Shown here: positions 2,384-64,000 of the stretch, one piece after another
Layout of the letters: each line of letters begins with the position of its first letter
How positions within the stretch are numbered: the stretch's first letter is position 1
Made by a program: the position numbers and the translations under genes
Notes under the pieces: model-generated
The model's database searches: none
The model's input: the letters and a program-made list of their open reading frames with translations, nothing else
What the model was told of the DNA's origin: nothing
NCBI GenBank assembly: GCA_910577845.1
Contig: CAJTNA010000007.1
Location: 2,968-66,967, forward strand
Length of the DNA stretch: 64,000 nt
Source: an uncultured Christensenella sp.
GTDB lineage: Bacteria > Bacillota > Clostridia > Christensenellales > UBA3700
Reading direction: 5' to 3'

Positions 2384-3573
2384 GAATTTTATATATTAGT
2401 CAATGTGATTTAGTTTTATCTAATAAAGGAATATACTCTGATTTAATAGATAAGTTATGTGCTAGTGGTCATGATGTAATATTGTGTTGTGCAGATAGTA
2501 AGTATAAAAAAACAAGTTTAATTGATGATAATGCATTAAAAAAACTAGAAATTAAAGTTCCAAACCAATTTGGTGTTAATTTTATTAAAAAAGGCTTAAT
2601 TATTTTAAGTTTAGAAAATATAATTAAAAAAAATATCAAAAAATTTTTAAAAAAGGAAAGCTTTGATTTAGTAATTTATGCTACGCCACCTATAACTTTC
2701 GCAGGTGCAATTAAATATTGTAAAAAACAATATAATTGCAAATCATATTTAATGCTAAAGGATATTTTTCCTCAAAATGCAGTTGATTTGCATATGATTT
2801 CAAAAACTGGTATAAGTGGTATTTTGTATAAAATTTTCAGAAAAAAAGAGAGTGCATTATACAAAGTCTCTGACAAGATTGGTTGTATGAGTAATGCAAA
2901 CATTAATTATGTGTTAGAACATAATAGCTATATTGATGAAAATAAAGTTGAGTTGTTTCCTAATGCCATTAATTGTGTAGATAAAATAGAAAAAGATAAA
3001 TCAATTTTGGAAAAGATAGGACTTGACAAGGACAAGCTAACATTTATATATGGTGGAAATTTGGGCAAGCCACAAGGATTGGACTTTTTGTCAAATGCAA
3101 TAAAGGCTTGTGAAAATATAGAAAAAGTTCAGTTTGTTATGATAGGCAGTGGTAGTGAGAAAACAAAATTTTTTGAGAGTTTAGAAAGTGTAAGCAATTG
3201 TAAATGTTTAGAAAGATTACCGCACGACGATTATGAAAAATTGTGTGCATCTTGTGATGTAGGTATTATCGCTTTAGATTATAGATTTACTATACCAAAT
3301 TATCCTTCAAGAATTTTATCTTATATGAGTTGCAGTATGCCAATTTTAGCTTGTACTGATATAGTCACTGATATAAAAGAACTGGTTGAGCAAGAAGCAA
3401 ATTGCGGTAAGTGGTGTTATAGTGATGACATTGAAGGCTTTGTTCAATGCGTTAAATGGTTTGCTGAAAATCAAGAAAAATTGCAAGAGTTAGGAAATAA
3501 TGCTTTTCATTATATGATAAATAATTTTAACACAAAAATTTGTGTTGAAAAATTAGAGAATTTTATGCAATAA
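2380..3573 (+). CDS. Glycosyltransferase, GT4, WbuB-like (possible L-FucNAc transferase)
   Basis: MRILYISQ N-terminus and GT-B architecture. WbuB-like transferases typically co-occur with fnlABC, which is present downstream. The substrate assignment is inference. Confidence 0.6.
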   Translation: MRILYISQCDLVLSNKGIYSDLIDKLCASGHDVILCCADSKYKKTSLIDDNALKKLEIKVPNQFGVNFIKKGLIILSLENIIKKNIKKFLKKESFDLVIYATPPITFAGAIKYCKKQYNCKSYLMLKDIFPQNAVDLHMISKTGISGILYKIFRKKESALYKVSDKIGCMSNANINYVLEHNSYIDENKVELFPNAINCVDKIEKDKSILEKIGLDKDKLTFIYGGNLGKPQGLDFLSNAIKACENIEKVQFVMIGSGSEKTKFFESLESVSNCKCLERLPHDDYEKLCASCDVGIIALDYRFTIPNYPSRILSYMSCSMPILACTDIVTDIKELVEQEANCGKWCYSDDIEGFVQCVKWFAENQEKLQELGNNAFHYMINNFNTKICVEKLENFMQ

Positions 3574-24194: not shown

Positions 24195-25970
24195 ATGGCA
24201 AATATAAATAACAATGGTGAGCAAAATAATCGTGGTCATCGCAAAGTTATTAACCCTCTTGAGGGGATTTTTGGCAAGTTGTCAAAAATGAAATTTCAAA
24301 CAGCAATGATTATTTTAGGCGTATTCACTGCCTTTTTAATATTTTGGCAAATTTATTTTAGTTTGATATCTTTTTCAATTTACAATATTGGACTTAGAGC
24401 GTTTATTATAATTTTGCTTTTATTATGGTCTATTCCTTTTGCAGTGTTCTTTATGCGTAACACTAAAAACGGATATACTAAAAAAGATGCGTTTATGAAA
24501 GTTCATTGGGGTTGGAAAATTCCAGCTGGGATTGCTCTTGTTTTAACTCTTGTATGCATTTGTATGGCAATTTTCACTACGCCAATGTTTATGGCTAAGT
24601 CATATAATCAAATGATTAGTGTGGAAACAAAGTCGGGTACTGCTGAAGAACCTTTTAAAGAATTTACTGAAGAAGTTGATGACTTTTATGACGGCGATAT
24701 GAAAGTTGCAATTATTGATAAATATTTTGCAGATTTACTTGGTGAGAAAGTTTTAGGTACTAGCAGTGGTGGTTATGCCAGTCAGTTTGAGGTTAATGAC
24801 TATACTTTAATCAACTACAAAAATAGTTTGTACTGGGTTGGTGCATTAGAGCCTAAAGGCTTTTTCCAATGGACATCTTCTGCAAAAGAGGGTGGTTCAC
24901 CAGGGTATGTTTTGGTTGATGCTACACAAGCAGAATCTAATGCAAGGGCGGACCTTATAACTACTCATAAATTAAAGTACACTCCAGGTGCTTATTTATG
25001 GCACGATGCGGAAAGAAAAATGTATTTTTCAAATATGGGTGCTTTGCGTGAGAATGAACTTGGCTTTGAGCTAGATGATGATGGTGTTCCATATTACACT
25101 CAAGTAATTTATAAAAAGAAATTTGGTATTACAAGTGGTGATGAGGCAACTGGTTTGCTTGTTATGAATGCTACAACTGGTGAGTGCAAAAGCTATGCTT
25201 TAGATAAAGTACCAGAATGGATTGATAATGTGCAATCACACAATATGATACTTAAACAATTAAATTATTGGGGTGAGTATTCAAAAGGATACTTTAATAC
25301 TTGGTTCGCAAAAGAGGAAGTTAATAATACTACTGCTGGTTACAACTATGTTTACAATAATGATAGATTTTATATCACAACTGGTATAACTGCAAAGTCT
25401 GGTGATAATGCTATTGTTGGTATGGTATTGTCAGACTTAAGAACTAAGAAAACTACAATGTATAATATGGTTGGTGCGACAGAGCAAGCTGCAATGAAAT
25501 CTGCTCAAGGTATTCAAGAGGTAGCAGCAGCTGGTTATAAGGCATCGTTCCCAGCATTAATAAATTTCCAAGGTGTACCTACTTTCTATATGGCTCTAAA
25601 GGATTCTGCAGGTAATATAAAAATGTATGCTTTTGTTAATGTACAAGACTATACTAGTAAACTTGCAGCGGGCAATACTCCAGATGAGGCAAAAGCAAAA
25701 TATGCTGAAACTATTAAAGGTGATATAATTGATAAGCCAGTTGTTCCAAGTGGTGAAGAAAAGATTGGTACTTATATAAGAGAATTGGAATATGATGGTA
25801 CAACATCTATGTATATTAAAGTTGAGGATAAATACTATATCGTATCAGCTAAAATTGCTGGAGCTGAAAAATGGTTGAGTGTGAAAATGCAAGAAGGTGA
25901 CAATGTTAAAGTTAGAATTAATAATGGCAGAGTAACTGAAGTATTGGATGTAAAATTTGCAATTAGCTGA
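24195..25970 (+). CDS. Uncharacterised membrane protein (N-terminal TM bundle plus large extracytoplasmic domain)
   Basis: Strong RBS (AAGGAG). About 3-4 hydrophobic helices lie in the first 135 aa, followed by roughly 450 aa of soluble domain. I recognise no family. Confidence 0.5.
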   Translation: MANINNNGEQNNRGHRKVINPLEGIFGKLSKMKFQTAMIILGVFTAFLIFWQIYFSLISFSIYNIGLRAFIIILLLLWSIPFAVFFMRNTKNGYTKKDAFMKVHWGWKIPAGIALVLTLVCICMAIFTTPMFMAKSYNQMISVETKSGTAEEPFKEFTEEVDDFYDGDMKVAIIDKYFADLLGEKVLGTSSGGYASQFEVNDYTLINYKNSLYWVGALEPKGFFQWTSSAKEGGSPGYVLVDATQAESNARADLITTHKLKYTPGAYLWHDAERKMYFSNMGALRENELGFELDDDGVPYYTQVIYKKKFGITSGDEATGLLVMNATTGECKSYALDKVPEWIDNVQSHNMILKQLNYWGEYSKGYFNTWFAKEEVNNTTAGYNYVYNNDRFYITTGITAKSGDNAIVGMVLSDLRTKKTTMYNMVGATEQAAMKSAQGIQEVAAAGYKASFPALINFQGVPTFYMALKDSAGNIKMYAFVNVQDYTSKLAAGNTPDEAKAKYAETIKGDIIDKPVVPSGEEKIGTYIRELEYDGTTSMYIKVEDKYYIVSAKIAGAEKWLSVKMQEGDNVKVRINNGRVTEVLDVKFAIS

Positions 25971-26257
25971 CATTATATCAAAGTTAATAAAAACTTGCAT
26001 TTAATATTGGAAATTCTTTAGTTTTTTTAATAAAAGTTGTTTTGTTGGAGCTTTTATAAGCGTACGTAAAACTTTTTGCAACAACTGAACTTACTGAAAG
26101 CAAAAATACTCGCATTGTTGTTGTTTTGTGATAATAATTTAAAATATTATTAAATTAAAATTTATACTTTATATTTTTCATTTGTGATATTGTTGAAAAT
26201 TGGTTTTAGAAAACAAGTCAGTTTTTGGCTTAAACAGAATAAAAATAATAGTTTACA

Positions 26258-26299
26258 TCAACACCCTAAAAGTAAAAAGTTTGGGGTGTTGAGTTTTTT
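26258..26299 (+). terminator. Terminator-like hairpin
   Basis: tcaacaccc / gggtgttga 9-bp stem followed by a T6 run. The 17-nt loop is long, which lowers confidence. Confidence 0.45.
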
Positions 26300-26333
26300 G
26301 TAAAGTCATAAATATGCAAAAAGTCGAATTTTT

Positions 26334-26365
26334 AAAAATACCCACCGAAAATCGGGGGTATTTTT
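26334..26365. terminator. Bidirectional rho-independent terminator
   Basis: aaaaataccc / gggtattttt perfect outer stem plus an inner ccg/cgg stem. It has an A-run 5' and a T-run 3'. Confidence 0.7.
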
Positions 26366-26397
26366 GAGTTAATTAGCTAAATTTTGTAAATTAAGGG

Positions 26398-26426
26398 TAC
26401 ATAGAATACATATATCTATGTACATA
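26398..26426. repeat. Left arm of 29-bp perfect inverted repeat (candidate inverton IR-L)
   Basis: tacatagaatacatatatctatgtacata is the exact reverse complement of 26545-26573. The arm is also internally palindromic (gtacatag...ctatgtac). Confidence 0.9.
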
Positions 26427-26436
26427 TTATATGAAT

Positions 26437-26466
26437 ATTATCTTATTAAATATATACATTTGTCAA
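26437..26466 (-). promoter_or_regulatory. Sigma-70-like promoter inside the IR-flanked segment, pointing away from the surface protein gene
   Basis: The minus strand reads TTGACA, an 18-nt spacer, then GATAAT. I saw no comparable + strand promoter between the upstream terminators and the ATG. Confidence 0.55.
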
Positions 26467-26544
26467 GTATAAGATAAACAATTTGTAAAATGATAACATT
26501 AAATTAACTTTAGCTTTACAAAAACATAGCCGAATAGCCTATTT

Positions 26545-26573
26545 TATGTACATAGATATATGTATTCTATGTA
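26545..26573. repeat. Right arm of 29-bp perfect inverted repeat (candidate inverton IR-R)
   Basis: tatgtacatagatatatgtattctatgta. It ends 23 nt upstream of the ATG at 26597 and 9 nt upstream of the AGGAGG RBS. Confidence 0.9.
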
Positions 26574-26596
26574 TCTAAAAATAGGAGGTTTTTGCT

Positions 26597-29485
26597 ATGG
26601 AAACTAGTATAAAAAAGGTTGGAATTATAATCTCAATTTTAGCCGTAATTATTCTCGCTTTGGTAGGATGTTTTTGTGTTGCAAAGGTGAGTAATAACGA
26701 TAGTAGTTCTAATCTTAATAGTGGTAATCTTATGACCACTGCGGATGGTGAATTTGAATTGAGTGGTGATTGTGACTCAATTGCAACTGGTTGGAATAGT
26801 GCTGTTCAACTATCTGTTGATAGTGGTAAAAATGTAAAAGTTATTTTGAATGCTAATTGGATAGCAAAGAGTGATAGTGTTTATACAACATCTTTTGGAG
26901 AAGGAGTTGGTTTTAGCTCTGGGCAAATCTTTGTGCCTAACAATGCAAATATTACACTTGATTTAAATAAAAATATAATAGACAGAGGCTTATCTAAAAT
27001 AGATATGAGTGCGTGGATAACTAATGGTAGTGTAATAAAAGTTTTTGGGAATTTATCAGTGGTAGATAGTTCATTTAATGCAGAACAAGTGGAAAGAATA
27101 TTTGAAAGTCACAATGATAAAGAAACTTTGGTTGAAGAATTGGATAATTTGGAATGTGGCAAAATTATGGGTGGTGCTCAACTAAATTATGGTGGTGGCA
27201 TATATGTTGCTGATAAAGCCGAATTGAATTTTTATGGTGGTATGGTATGCCATAATAGAGCCACTAGAGGTGGGGCAACTGCTTTGATTGGACATTCTAT
27301 ACTTAATATTTATAATGGCTTGTTTTTATCAAATGCAGCTCAGATTGATGGCGGTGTTGGTTATTGGGATGGATATGTATTAATAAATGGAGGTTATTTT
27401 ATCAATAATATATCTACTCACGGTGGTGTTGTATATGCTCACGGCGGTAATTGTGAGATTATTATTAATGACGCAATTATTGCTCATAATAGTGCTAGCA
27501 ATAGTGGCGGTGGAATGTTTTTATACTATGGTGGCAGAATAACAATGAATCGTGGTTTAATTGCAAATAACGCTTCTAATTGGGGTGGTGGAGTATGTGT
27601 CTCCTCAAGTGGTTGTATTTTTACAATGAATGGTGGTGAAATTAGTGAAAACAATGCTATTTACGGCGGTGGTATAGGAATTTATGATTCAAAAGGACTT
27701 GCAACAATAACTTTAAATGGTGGTTCAATACATAACAATACTGCCGCTAATCAAGGTGCAGGAATATCATCTCACACTGGACGCATTACGACTTTTCAAA
27801 TTAATGGTACCGTGCAGATTTATGATAATAAGCAAGTAAATGGTGCAACAGAAAGAGTTTCAGATGTTTATTTGATAAGATATCAACTAATTGAGGTTAG
27901 AGGAACTTTATCAAGCACAAGTAAAATGGCTTATGTAGGAGTTGATTTAGCTACAAATTATGACGATGTTCCATTTACAACTGGTTATGTTAATTATAAT
28001 AGTTTAGCTCCTGCAAAACATTTCTTTTCAAATAATATAGAAAATAATAAAGTTTATCCTATTGTTTTAAGTAATGGAGAAGCAAAATTAGATAAATCTG
28101 CTACAAGCGTTGAAAAACCTAATGCTTGTAAATGGGTTGTTACACCTCAAGGCGGTGTTGCGAAGGAAATTACTGAACCAAACTATGAAGTAGAATATAA
28201 TGGCAAGCCATTTACAATTACCAATAGTGCTGGACAATTTTATGTAGGTGGCACAACAAGTGCAATTAGTAGCTCAACTAATGCAAAAGATGCTGGAAAT
28301 TATGCATTTTATACAAATGCAAATGTATCTAACCCTTCATTTATATTAACTATAAGACAAAAAAGCGTAGATATTGATTGGGAAAATACAAATTTGACTT
28401 ACAACGGAAGTAATCAAATGCCTATTGCAAAAGTCAAAGCTAGTGATTTGGCTGTTGGTGATGAGTGTGATGTTGTCGTTTCTGGCGGTCAGACTATGGC
28501 AGGTAGTTATATTGCTACAGCTACAAGCTTAAGTAATGAAAATTATAAGTTTAAAACGACAATAAATCAGTATGTAAATTATACAATTGCAAAAGCTGAC
28601 TTAACAATAAATATAGTGACAAAAGATATAGAAAAAGAATACAATGGTAAAATAATTGATATTGGAAAAGATTGGTACACTTTATCAGCAGATTTGTTAG
28701 GCGTAGATAGTGGAAAAGAAATAGACAAACTATTTAACATTGATACAAAAGCCTTTGTGCCACAATTTAATGGTAATGAAAGTGCGGTTGAAGTTGGCGA
28801 ATATACAATATCTACAAAACCATTTACAGTAAGTGAAGTATTTAAAGATAATTTTAATTACAATGTAAATATAAATTATGTAAACACTGGCAAATTAACA
28901 ATAACAAATCCGTCAGTGATAAGACCAACAGATAATAGTGGATATGACTTTATGATGTTACAAAACAATAAGAGAGTATCTTACAAGGAAAAGGAACTTA
29001 TCCACGGAGACAATGATAGTGAGTATACAAACTTTGTATTAGGTAATATTGCTCCAAATACAAGTGTACAAACATTGCTAAACAATTTGGTGTTTAGTGA
29101 TATGTCACAAGTTCAAATCTATAATGGAGCAAATGAAGTAGTATATGGAGAAAATGCAAAAGCATTCTATACAGCAAATATAGATAATGGAACAGAATTA
29201 GCAGTAGGAACAGGTTGGTATATAAGATATGAAAAATTAACTGGAGGAGAGGAAACAATCTACCTATCAGTATTAGGTGATTTGACTGGAGATGGTAAGG
29301 TAAACTCAGCAGATGTAAACCGCTTAAGACAAATGGTAAACAACAGCGAAGTATACACAAACTCAAATGAGGTAGTAAAACTAAGTAGTTTAATCATAAA
29401 CAATGGCAAAACACCAACAAATGCAGATGCAGAAATAGTATGGAATGTAGTTTGCGGAAAGATAGATATTGCAGATTTTATTTAA
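26597..29485 (+). CDS. Large cell-surface protein: N-terminal signal/anchor, Pmp-like parallel beta-helix repeats, MBG-like modules, C-terminal dockerin-like module
   Basis: Hydrophobic N-terminus. About 10 tandem Gly/Asn-rich repeats of roughly 23-25 aa (GGGIYV, GGATAL, GGGMFL, GGGVCV, GGGIGI) lie at about nt 27164-27827. Repeats of the (Y)NGK...NYxF...YTIxKADLTI type lie at about 28157-28700. GDLTGDGKVNSADVNRLRQMV begins at nt 29276. Confidence 0.75.
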   Translation: METSIKKVGIIISILAVIILALVGCFCVAKVSNNDSSSNLNSGNLMTTADGEFELSGDCDSIATGWNSAVQLSVDSGKNVKVILNANWIAKSDSVYTTSFGEGVGFSSGQIFVPNNANITLDLNKNIIDRGLSKIDMSAWITNGSVIKVFGNLSVVDSSFNAEQVERIFESHNDKETLVEELDNLECGKIMGGAQLNYGGGIYVADKAELNFYGGMVCHNRATRGGATALIGHSILNIYNGLFLSNAAQIDGGVGYWDGYVLINGGYFINNISTHGGVVYAHGGNCEIIINDAIIAHNSASNSGGGMFLYYGGRITMNRGLIANNASNWGGGVCVSSSGCIFTMNGGEISENNAIYGGGIGIYDSKGLATITLNGGSIHNNTAANQGAGISSHTGRITTFQINGTVQIYDNKQVNGATERVSDVYLIRYQLIEVRGTLSSTSKMAYVGVDLATNYDDVPFTTGYVNYNSLAPAKHFFSNNIENNKVYPIVLSNGEAKLDKSATSVEKPNACKWVVTPQGGVAKEITEPNYEVEYNGKPFTITNSAGQFYVGGTTSAISSSTNAKDAGNYAFYTNANVSNPSFILTIRQKSVDIDWENTNLTYNGSNQMPIAKVKASDLAVGDECDVVVSGGQTMAGSYIATATSLSNENYKFKTTINQYVNYTIAKADLTINIVTKDIEKEYNGKIIDIGKDWYTLSADLLGVDSGKEIDKLFNIDTKAFVPQFNGNESAVEVGEYTISTKPFTVSEVFKDNFNYNVNINYVNTGKLTITNPSVIRPTDNSGYDFMMLQNNKRVSYKEKELIHGDNDSEYTNFVLGNIAPNTSVQTLLNNLVFSDMSQVQIYNGANEVVYGENAKAFYTANIDNGTELAVGTGWYIRYEKLTGGEETIYLSVLGDLTGDGKVNSADVNRLRQMVNNSEVYTNSNEVVKLSSLIINNGKTPTNADAEIVWNVVCGKIDIADFI

Positions 29486-29700
29486 CAACAAATTACATAG
29501 AAAGCTATAATTAAATAAGTAAGTTGTAAAATGTTTAAAAATAGATTAATATAAAAGGCTAAAACTACTTAAAAGACAAATAGAATATTATTAAGCAATC
29601 TAGCAATGTTTGCAATACAAGCTTAATAGTTACAAATTCAATAGCAACTAAAGTTTAATATTCAAATGTTGTAAATTTAAAAAATAATGCTATTAAACAA

Positions 29701-29724
29701 ACAAGATACCAGTTGGTATCTTGT
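29701..29724 (+). terminator. Terminator-like hairpin downstream of the surface protein gene
   Basis: acaagatacc / ggtatcttgt perfect 10-bp stem with a 4-nt loop. The T-tract that follows is only moderately T-rich (tgtttatt). Confidence 0.5.
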
Positions 29725-30062
29725 TGTTTATTAGGCATTGCTTTTATGTTTTTGATTTTAATGTGTAAAAGTTTTTAAGATATTAGTTTTGTAATTAAAC
29801 TATTTAAAAATGGTATGTAAAATAATTTTGATAAATTTTTTTGTTGCTCGCTATTATACCATAATACCACAAGATGGCTAATGCTGTCTTGAGGTATTAC
29901 GGTGTATGTAAAGGAGTTTTGTGAGCATATTTGATTTTGTTTGCAATCTATAAATATATTAATATGGATTGCATAAGTTTTAGACTACAAACAAATAATA
30001 AATAACTTAAAATGAAATATTAGTATTACTTTAATTGATAGTTGTTTTAAACAAATTATTGA

Positions 30063-30824
30063 TTAATCGTTTACATTTTCTTTTGTTGTAATTTCAATGT
30101 TTTCTGCTGTGTAATTGTTTGTCTTTTTACGACTAAAACGATTATTTATTTTAGTTTTTGTATTGAAAATAAAAGATTGCAATTTGTTTTTAGATGTACT
30201 ATGTTCACTTTTTTCAATATCATTTGTTGATTTGCTGCCTTCAATGTCTTCTGTTGTAGCAATTTTATTTCCTATTCTACTAAATACATATTTTTTTAAT
30301 GGATAGTATAAAATGCAAATTATGCAACAATTTATTAGGAAAAAACCTAATTGAGGTCCAATTCTGCCAATAAAGTATACCCAAAAAGTTTTTTTGCCGA
30401 TTGCAAAAAACAAATAAAGTCCTAATGTAGTTAAAAAACACGTACATACTAAAAATACAGCTAAAAAAGATAATGCTAACTTAAAATAAAGTTTTAGTTT
30501 AGGTATTTTAAAAATTAGACCAGGTAAAAAACCTATAAATGCTGATGAAATTGTTAAAAGTGGTATCCACGCCATACCTTGGCTATTTATCAAGAAACCT
30601 AGCAAATCGCCTAAGAAGCCTACTAAAAACCCTGCAATCGGTCCAAGAAAGATGCCGGCAATAAAACAAGGAATATAAGAGAATGTTAGTTTTAATGCAC
30701 CATTGCCAATAGGGATATCAAAAGTGTTGCATATAATAGCTATTGCTATTAAGATTGCAGTGTAAGTGATAAAAAGCGTTGTTTTTATCTTGGTGTTGCC
30801 ATGTGTTTTTGTACCATTCTTCAT
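30063..30824 (-). CDS. folT: ECF transporter S-component, folate family (FolT-like) with hydrophilic C-terminal extension
   Basis: Polytopic membrane core (first ~185 aa) with a GPxxGFxVGxxGDLLG motif typical of ECF S-components. Preceded by a GGAGG RBS and a THF riboswitch. The last ~70 aa are hydrophilic. Confidence 0.75.
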   Translation of the reverse strand: MKNGTKTHGNTKIKTTLFITYTAILIAIAIICNTFDIPIGNGALKLTFSYIPCFIAGIFLGPIAGFLVGFLGDLLGFLINSQGMAWIPLLTISSAFIGFLPGLIFKIPKLKLYFKLALSFLAVFLVCTCFLTTLGLYLFFAIGKKTFWVYFIGRIGPQLGFFLINCCIICILYYPLKKYVFSRIGNKIATTEDIEGSKSTNDIEKSEHSTSKNKLQSFIFNTKTKINNRFSRKKTNNYTAENIEITTKENVND

Positions 30825-63677: not shown

Positions 63678-64000
63678 ATGAAAAAGAAGTTAGTATTTAT
63701 TTTTGTAATTTTGATGTTAGTTGTAAGTTTAACTACATTAACAGCGTGTGGGCTTTTTAATTCTGGTAGCAATGGTAGTGATAGTAACTATAATGGTAAT
63801 AAAAATGTAGAAGTACAAGTACCAGAGGATAATACTCAAAACGATACACCAACTACTGAGGATGAGGAAGCAGATTCTGCTGAGATTACTTTGGTTTGTG
63901 AGTTTGACTTAGCAGTTGCGGAAAACATTGATATTGTAGCTCCTAACCCAAGTATAGACGAGAGTGTTCTTGATGGTGTTGTGACAGAGGAAGAGGCTGA
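63678..64000 (+). CDS. Lipoprotein (3' end outside window)
   Basis: ATG at 63678 preceded by AAGGTG. MKKKLVFIFVILMLVVSLTTLTAC signal peptide with lipobox, then a low-complexity acidic linker. The frame stays open to the window end. Confidence 0.6.
   Translation, partial: MKKKLVFIFVILMLVVSLTTLTACGLFNSGSNGSDSNYNGNKNVEVQVPEDNTQNDTPTTEDEEADSAEITLVCEFDLAVAENIDIVAPNPSIDESVLDGVVTEEEA

Follow-up and report, generated by a model that had tools for sequence, protein, structure and literature searches.

We analysed a 64,000-nucleotide stretch of DNA (the window; contig CAJTNA010000007.1, uncultured Christensenella sp.) in which two inverted repeats (IR), IR-L and IR-R, bracket a short promoter-bearing segment directly upstream of the gene for a 962-aa putative surface protein. 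The initial annotation read this 176-bp element (26398–26573) as a candidate promoter inverton, an invertible promoter segment, assembled in the OFF orientation. We favour, with moderate confidence, a broader version of that proposal, in which the element belongs to a family of promoter invertons that occupies many loci and is strongly biased toward OFF. The anatomy of the element and its comparison with related loci support the inverton proposal; the pair of orientations that it implies was not found. The locus is made up as follows:

26258–26298 (+): first intrinsic terminator; 13-bp stem TCAACACCCTAAA/TTTGGGGTGTTGA, 9-nt loop, then GTTTTTTG
26331–26368 (both strands): bidirectional intrinsic terminator, AAAAATACCCACCGAAAATCGGGGGTATTTTT; −19.5 / −16.8 kcal/mol, z = −4.9 / −4.4
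26385–26390 (+): TGTAAA motif, 6 nt outside IR-L; invariant columns in the cross-lineage alignment
26398–26426 (+): IR-L, the left 29-bp arm; dyad GTACATAGA-N9-TCTATGTAC at 26397–26423, centre CA at 26409–26410
26427–26544 (no strand assigned): putative invertible segment, 118 bp; promoter-bearing left half conserved, right half differs among copies
26466–26437 (−): sigma-70-type promoter TTGACA-18-GATAAT, 11/12 consensus match; fires leftward, away from the gene
26545–26573 (−): IR-R, the right 29-bp arm, exact reverse complement of IR-L
26584–26588 (+): Shine-Dalgarno sequence GGAGG, 8 nt before the ATG at 26597 and just outside IR-R; conserved in all copies
26597–29485 (+): 962-aa family gene; hydrophobic N-terminal helix that ends in the lipobox-like LVGC (Cys25), beta-solenoid, beta-sandwich domains, dockerin-like C-terminus

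Anatomy of the cassette

The two arms are identical over 29 bp, and the match extends to 34 nt at 94% complementarity. The arm sequence has two exact occurrences in the window, one on each strand, and was matched in none of 100 dinucleotide-preserving shuffles, even with up to three mismatches permitted. Both the perfect 29-bp repeats around 118 bp and the internal palindromes described in the initial annotation were borne out, the latter as a GTACATAGA-N9-TCTATGTAC dyad. Each arm thus has a 9-N9-9 architecture with a 27-bp dyad-symmetric core, and about 40 copies in three lineages keep the inverted-repeat arrangement expected of a promoter inverton.

What could transcribe the downstream gene? 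A promoter scan returned one promoter-like site between the upstream terminators and the ATG, formed on the minus strand by TTGACA (26466–26461) and GATAAT (26442–26437), which is the promoter that the initial annotation had read. Its predicted start, at about 26430, coincides with the inner edge of IR-L. The other match between 25900 and 26700 was a 9/12 site (26139–26168) upstream of both terminators, and the scan found no gene-facing sigma-70-like site between the terminators and the ATG in the window lineage. Judged by sequence, the promoter is contained within the segment, and one of the two orientations alone would let it drive the gene. Flipping 26427–26544 would place it at 26505–26534 on the plus strand, with a start about 55 nt before the ATG, and our arithmetic agrees on this point with the earlier estimate.

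Upstream, two terminators in tandem separate the cassette from the preceding gene. The first (26258–26292 plus its U-run) folds at −17.8 kcal/mol (z = −4.1), has an equivalent hairpin in paralogous cassettes and is predicted to stop read-through from the upstream 591-aa gene. The second adjoins every terminator-side arm of the window lineage. Because both of its strands fold, with U-runs on both sides, it appears to be bidirectional, and it should both block read-through toward the gene and halt the leftward transcripts of the internal promoter. A pattern scanner with a loop limit of 8 missed both terminators, the first of which has a 9-nt loop; folding recovered both, and the energies and z-scores uphold the earlier description of a tandem pair with a bidirectional second member.

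An RNA can be predicted for each orientation. In the assembled orientation the transcript would be 98 nt long and folds at −26 kcal/mol (z = −5.0). In an ON transcript IR-R would form a 5′-terminal hairpin with a 9-bp stem, and the 61-nt 5′ untranslated region that holds it folds at −13.1 kcal/mol. A minus-strand hairpin at the far end of the interior (TAGCC-GAAAA-GGCTA and a T-run) was considered as a second terminator and rejected, as it is not kept in the window, L001 and L004 copies (loci used for comparison carry L numbers throughout).

The genes behind the cassettes

The 962-aa product matched no Pfam family above threshold. Its AlphaFold2 model has a mean pLDDT (predicted local distance difference test score) of 75.7, rising to about 90 over a beta-solenoid at residues ~50–480, and continues into beta-sandwich domains and a helical C-terminus; a Foldseek search with the model gave no significant match in the PDB. 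Our description of the fold combines the model with Pfam matches in homologs: Dockerin_1 scores weakly in the 962-aa product (17.8 bits) and exceeds its cutoff in the L100 homolog, and Beta_helix exceeds its own in the L003 paralog. Surface-exposed and possibly lipid-anchored is a fair description of the product, and the term lipoprotein stays tentative because the L104 lineage is without the cysteine.

Every gene found behind a cassette (32/32) belongs to one family, with a common N-terminus, a common dockerin-like C-terminus and variable middles. Complete open reading frames (ORFs) of the family span 689–1164 aa, and each one that lies wholly inside its contig is intact.

At least 20 cassettes in a sister genome

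The initial annotation dealt with a single switch and suggested a search for further copies of the repeat. We scanned one genome per GTDB species for the 19-nt core AATACATATATCTATGTAC and found it in 29 stretches of a single metagenome-assembled genome (MAG), MGBC120187 'uncultured Christensenella sp.', which is 92–95% identical to the window where the two overlap. These stretches hold 20 terminator-side and 16 ribosome-binding-site (RBS)-side arms. Since 20 terminator-side arms were counted, MGBC120187 carries at least 20 cassettes, and the notion of a single switch has to be corrected to that of a cassette repeated before one paralogous surface-protein family. The copies are homologous to one another from the terminators as far as the signal peptide of the gene that follows, and this gene is always of the same family. 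A multi-copy unit of this extent, terminator to signal peptide before one gene family, resembles the layout of known multi-gene phase-variation systems (PMC2268961).

Most of the 29 core-bearing stretches end at a contig boundary, so the cassette breaks MAG assemblies at nearly every copy. In MGBC120187 the contig ends cluster at the inner edge of the arms. We considered this clustering as evidence of mixed orientations and rejected it, because an inverted repeat and a multi-copy repeat give the same graph branches.

The number of copies at the window locus differs among strains, with at least two family genes in tandem in sister strains. At 29481–30062 of the window, the 3′ flank after the 962-aa gene equals the flank after the last paralog (1017 aa) of the tandem array in GCA_949878455.1, and strains 98–99.9% identical to the window hold a second cassette and gene there (L001–L004 and L101 compared). 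Homology breaks off at the stop codon, in the conserved stretch that encodes the C-terminus; the missing second copy could reflect contraction of the array by homologous recombination or assembly collapse. About 2–3 kb past position 64000 (L102:5700–9495; L022:1–2300), downstream of leuA/C/D/B genes, there is a further family member of 1164 aa, preceded by a cassette of its own that has the same orientation.

Conservation of the promoter and covariation of the arms

Homologs with 31–37% protein identity and the same layout were found in GCA_948531805.1 (L100) and in GCA_948985595.1, ERR3199589 and GCA_948508215.1 (L104–L106). The promoter sits at the same position and on the same strand in L100 (TTGACA-18-TAAAAT, 11/12) and in L104/L105 (TTGACA-18-TATAAT, 12/12). 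Between lineages the hexamers are fixed amid divergence of the 18-nt spacer and of most of the interior. Because the hexamers keep their place while their surroundings diverge, the promoter is under selection. The distance from the −35 hexamer to the inner end of IR-L is exactly 34 nt in both the window and L100, and the spacing of the arm centres is 150–151 bp in all three lineages. A search of Rfam gave no family for the cassette, the best match (27 bits against a gathering score of 127) covering the terminators instead of the IR segment.

The arms covary between lineages. The half-sites of the dyad are conserved, and the central dinucleotide is CA in the window, AG in L100 and AA in L104/L105; in each of the three lineages it is the same in both arms of a cassette. 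Pairing of IR-L with IR-R in RNA was ruled out as the reason, since two terminators and no promoter lie upstream of IR-L in the window lineage and the only strong promoter lies between the arms. With this arrangement no transcript is predicted to contain both arms, and their matching therefore points to an interaction between the arms at the DNA level. Serine and tyrosine recombinases both require identical crossover or overlap sequences. The covarying centres fit a recombinase crossover site, as expected if the arms recombine with each other.

The flanks and the interior also hold shorter conserved elements. In all three lineages TGTAAA is found at the same place, 6 nt beyond the terminator-side arm, and never on the RBS side; it may be a site for an accessory protein. 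As a −10 or −35 element it was discarded, given that it yields a minus-strand site (10/12) in L104/L105 only and none in the window lineage. Inside the segment, TTGTAA (26483–26488) lies exactly 16 nt beyond the −35 hexamer and is invariant across the three lineages. To the left of the cassette, AAAATCGGGGGTA (26350–26362; L100:9783–9806; L104:2762–2774) is kept in all lineages, interrupted in L100, and makes a terminator hairpin in the window lineage only.

L104 and L105 show about 25 differences over positions 2858–2945 of each, confined to the interior, with identical flanks and an identical 791-aa gene. Because they differ in the interior alone, the promoter segment has been exchanged or converted between cassettes.

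A candidate recombinase

Neither a motif search by regular expression over the window ORFs of at least 120 aa nor Pfam scans of 19 ORFs around the locus returned a recombinase, in line with the initial annotation, which had seen none in the window. For tyrosine recombinases the motif search was extended to the window and all related loci and gave no match; a regular expression is a crude test. In MGBC120187 a small serine recombinase of 202 aa (L028:3660–4268) is encoded 3.6 kb from one cassette, among housekeeping genes. It matches the Pfam family Resolvase (E = 2.6e-31), its best PDB match is Sin/Bin3 (E = 1.2e-30), with the gamma-delta and Tn3 resolvases also close, and near-identical alleles occur on at least 38 contigs. 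We regard this protein as a candidate for the enzyme of the cassettes and nothing more. Downstream of the recombinase gene, at L028:4270–4590, lie about three tandem AT-rich units of about 100 bp each (...ttacttgttactatcaaaagtatagtgacaatt...).

Orientation of the cassettes and points against inversion

Which orientations do the cassettes adopt? The initial annotation had proposed a comparison of orthologous loci in search of both. We made this comparison at 63 readable junctions (32 terminator-side, 31 RBS-side) from the window, four sister-strain assemblies of the same locus, the MGBC120187 paralogs and two further lineages, and the second orientation did not appear: at every readable junction the promoter end meets the terminator side and the far end meets the RBS side, so that 0/63 are ON. 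This is the first of several observations that weigh against inversion. The orientations were read from consensus assemblies, which show the majority state and leave a minority orientation invisible. An unbiased switch would be expected to be ON in about half of such assemblies, and an unbiased 50:50 switch is ruled out. Because every consensus copy is OFF, we infer a strong bias toward OFF. Uniformly OFF assemblies do not contradict inversion, because a system with one or a few genes ON per cell leaves each locus mostly OFF.

Database look-ups extend the survey little. About five assemblies of the window species are on record (look-ups with four 90%-cluster mates and HydF), all in the same orientation, and an exact-protein look-up of the 962-aa product found no match. 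A scan of metagenome contigs for ON junctions was empty and carries no weight, as the cassette is absent from that collection; a control scan of the same collection with the core returned 63 single chance matches, mostly to one unrelated conserved sequence. Viral contigs scanned with a degenerate arm pattern gave 0 matches.

The arms themselves supply further adverse points. In one MGBC120187 copy (L006) the arm centres are mismatched, one arm having T for C (AATATATATATC vs AATACATATATC); the variant is the terminator-side arm, near 3102 on the minus strand, and this copy would be locked if the dyad centre is the crossover site. Imperfect arms also occur in L002 and L003, and the terminator-side arm of MGBC120187 reads TACATAA. 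The link between the 202-aa recombinase and the cassettes is proximity in one genome, the protein belongs to a very large Clostridia family of recombinases of about 200 aa, and it scores 43.5 bits against the NCBIfam model of Mpi (NF009949), whose cutoff is 272. Finally, L100, L104 and L105 have a weak TG-extended plus-strand site (9/12) upstream of IR-L, just upstream of AAAATCGGGGGTA. Because of this second promoter-like site, an all-or-none promoter logic may fail in these loci.

Neighbouring features

Directly upstream of the terminators, the 591-aa ORF (24195–25970, +) matches no Pfam or NCBIfam family, is without a cassette of its own and is conserved in sister strains. Beyond the 962-aa gene, a tetrahydrofolate (THF) riboswitch (RF01831; 30886–30982, −; 65.7 bits, E = 1.1e-12) precedes a minus-strand gene for an energy-coupling factor (ECF) transporter S-component (30063–30824), which is probably a folate transporter.

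A model for OFF-biased promoter inversion

How might such a family of cassettes operate? The genes would be insulated from upstream transcription by terminators, with the sole conserved promoter placed between two identical inverted sites. In the OFF state this promoter would fire away from the gene, and the resulting RNA of about 100 nt (IR hairpin and linker) would end at the bidirectional terminator, which would also shield the upstream gene from antisense transcription. A recombinase dimer would bind each arm at the GTACATAGA-N9-TCTATGTAC dyad, and strand exchange at the asymmetric dyad centre would flip the 118-bp segment. In the ON state the promoter would lie about 55 nt before the ATG, and the mRNA would have the IR-R hairpin at its 5′ end and then the RBS. 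In any one cell, one or a few of at least 20 genes would thus be active. The bias toward OFF might stem from the asymmetry of the cassette, namely the one-sided TGTAAA and an outer half-site TACATAA instead of TACATAG, although this is speculation. By one route or another the family genes must be expressed, because all ORFs that lie wholly within contigs are intact.

A more specific version of the model is offered tentatively, as a possibility: in an uncultured gut Clostridia of very low GC content, at least 20 switches with a common 19-bp core would be served by one small serine recombinase and kept strongly OFF, each cell displaying one or a few surface proteins, with segments exchanged between loci. 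If true, a walled, commensal Firmicute would have its own counterpart of mycoplasma-style antigenic variation.

For Bacteroidales and a few mycoplasmas, large multi-locus systems of promoter inversion are well documented. In our literature search we found no report of such systems in Christensenellales-like Clostridia. The cassette probably belongs to the promoter-inverton kind, in a clade and a gene family for which no prior report was found. If the cassettes flip, they would form one of the largest promoter-inverton regulons outside Bacteroidota, and the surface proteins under their control, with a beta-solenoid and a dockerin-like tail, would be a family not characterised before. This bears on how uncultured gut Firmicutes may vary their surface against phages or immunity, or for attachment to substrates. 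The cassette also offers a clean, testable recombination site, with a 9-N9-9 dyad, a lineage-specific central dinucleotide and a candidate recombinase.

Alternative explanations

Could the cassettes be fixed? In the most durable of the alternatives, which we consider unlikely, the arms are the operators of a dimeric DNA-binding protein that loops the DNA around the promoter of a non-inverting module. The arms are 150 bp apart, or about 14 helical turns; the leftward RNA of about 100 nt would join the IR hairpin through a linker to the terminator hairpin, and the surface genes would be transcribed by a route that is not recognisably sigma-70, for example by conditional read-through or with an alternative sigma factor. 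In favour of a fixed module are the single orientation of 63/63 readable junctions in three lineages, the arm spacing held at 150–151 bp, the good folding of the OFF RNA, and the fact that TGTAAA and the difference between TACATAA and TACATAG are fixed to one side. Against it are the arm centres: operators need no identical, inverted 9-bp centres that are themselves non-symmetric, nor a covariation of these between lineages. Nor is the linker of the putative RNA conserved between lineages; the length is about 170 nt in L100 and L104, compared with about 100 nt in the window, and no Rfam family covers the region. Moreover, at least 20 intact genes for proteins of 700–1160 aa would be left behind two terminators without a detectable promoter. 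If true, this explanation would make the cassette an undescribed regulatory module of paired dyads and a divergent promoter.

We consider it improbable, and more so than a fixed module, that the cassettes are frozen relics or a silent archive, in which flipping has ceased or is confined to an unsampled expression site and the OFF genes serve as donors for recombination or gene conversion. The exchange of interiors between copies (the ~25 interior differences of L104 and L105) and the variation in array size between strains, with its junction at the conserved C-terminal coding end, speak for this reading, as do the lack of an ON copy and the mismatched arm centres of L006. On the other side, every copy has kept its 19-bp core, perfect or nearly so, together with a consensus promoter and the RBS and start codon of its gene. 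With the intact ORFs of all copies that lie wholly within contigs, this fits active individual switches better than decaying relics, and no promoter-proficient expression site was found among the 29 core-bearing stretches of MGBC120187.

Spread of a miniature inverted-repeat transposable element (MITE) carrying an outward-facing promoter by chance might be suspected, since the element is short and AT-rich, has perfect terminal inverted repeats, occurs at least 20 times in one genome and interrupts the assembly almost wherever it occurs. This explanation is effectively refuted: homology passes both repeats (into the terminators on one side and the RBS, ATG and signal peptide on the other), the flanks show no target-site duplication (the left arm is preceded by GGG, the right arm followed by TCT), all copies point the same way toward the same gene family, and no copy occurs in another context in the window and the fetched loci.

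Comparison with known systems

How does the proposed family of OFF-biased promoter invertons compare with known switches? The initial annotation had likened the geometry to the Clostridioides difficile cwpV and flgB switches. The likeness extends to short IR-flanked segments upstream of surface or motility genes in Clostridia and, as far as our candidate goes, to a recombinase encoded elsewhere. In C. difficile this enzyme, RecV, is a tyrosine recombinase. Emerson 2009 is said to place the cwpV promoter upstream of the segment, the OFF orientation forming a terminator. Here, in contrast, the promoter lies inside the segment, and two terminators precede IR-L with no promoter-like site between them and the arm; the arrangement typical of cwpV and flgB, an upstream promoter and a segment transcribed both ways, was thus not found in the window lineage. 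In the flg switch, control comes after initiation, with Rho acting in the leader, and RecV, encoded elsewhere, serves several switches (PMC7446863). Mechanistically, then, the match is inexact.

A promoter inside the invertible segment is the canonical fimS-type mechanism (PMC7446863). As in Escherichia coli fimS and Salmonella hin, the orientation of the segment would decide the transcription of the adjacent gene, whereas our cassettes have 118 bp between the arms and at least 20 copies and those are single-locus switches. The fimS element is 314 bp long and the hin segment about 1 kb; the fim recombinases are encoded beside fimS, and hin within its own segment.

Likeness is greater with the polysaccharide-promoter invertons of Bacteroides fragilis, which, so far as PMC2268961 and PMC11602134 relate, are run by the serine invertase Mpi (Coyne et al. 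2003). Both sets comprise many dispersed promoter invertons, proposed ones in our case, with a common repeat core and concern the surface architecture of a gut commensal. In the Mpi regulon a single serine recombinase (about 200 aa), whose gene lies apart from the switches, acts globally, a role for which we have a candidate only, and one that scores below the threshold of the Mpi family. The two also differ in phylum, in repeat sequence and in targets, which here are single protein genes and not polysaccharide operons. Among the B. fragilis promoters both orientations are met with (PMC10403206); our copies are all OFF.

In the mpl (P35) family of Mycoplasma penetrans, clustered surface lipoprotein genes at several loci each have their own IR-flanked promoter segment (Horino et al. 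2003, as summarised in PMC2268961), and MYPE2900 and MYPE8180 are named as recombinase candidates (PMC2268961). Common to mpl and our cassettes are a multi-locus surface-protein family, promoter segments that are or would be individually switchable, and recombinase candidates encoded elsewhere. MYPE2900 and MYPE8180 are of the tyrosine type, and the M. penetrans repeats measure 12 bp and the segment 135 bp. Our cassettes differ in their host, a walled low-GC gut Clostridia, and in the unrelated beta-solenoid/dockerin-like proteins encoded behind them. They differ further in the 27-bp dyad-symmetric core of the arms, in a bidirectional terminator that would insulate the OFF promoter, in a candidate of the serine type, and in that inversion is here deduced from sequence. 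By analogy, the family nonetheless appears to resemble M. penetrans mpl and B. fragilis Mpi most closely, more than it does C. difficile cwpV and flgB.

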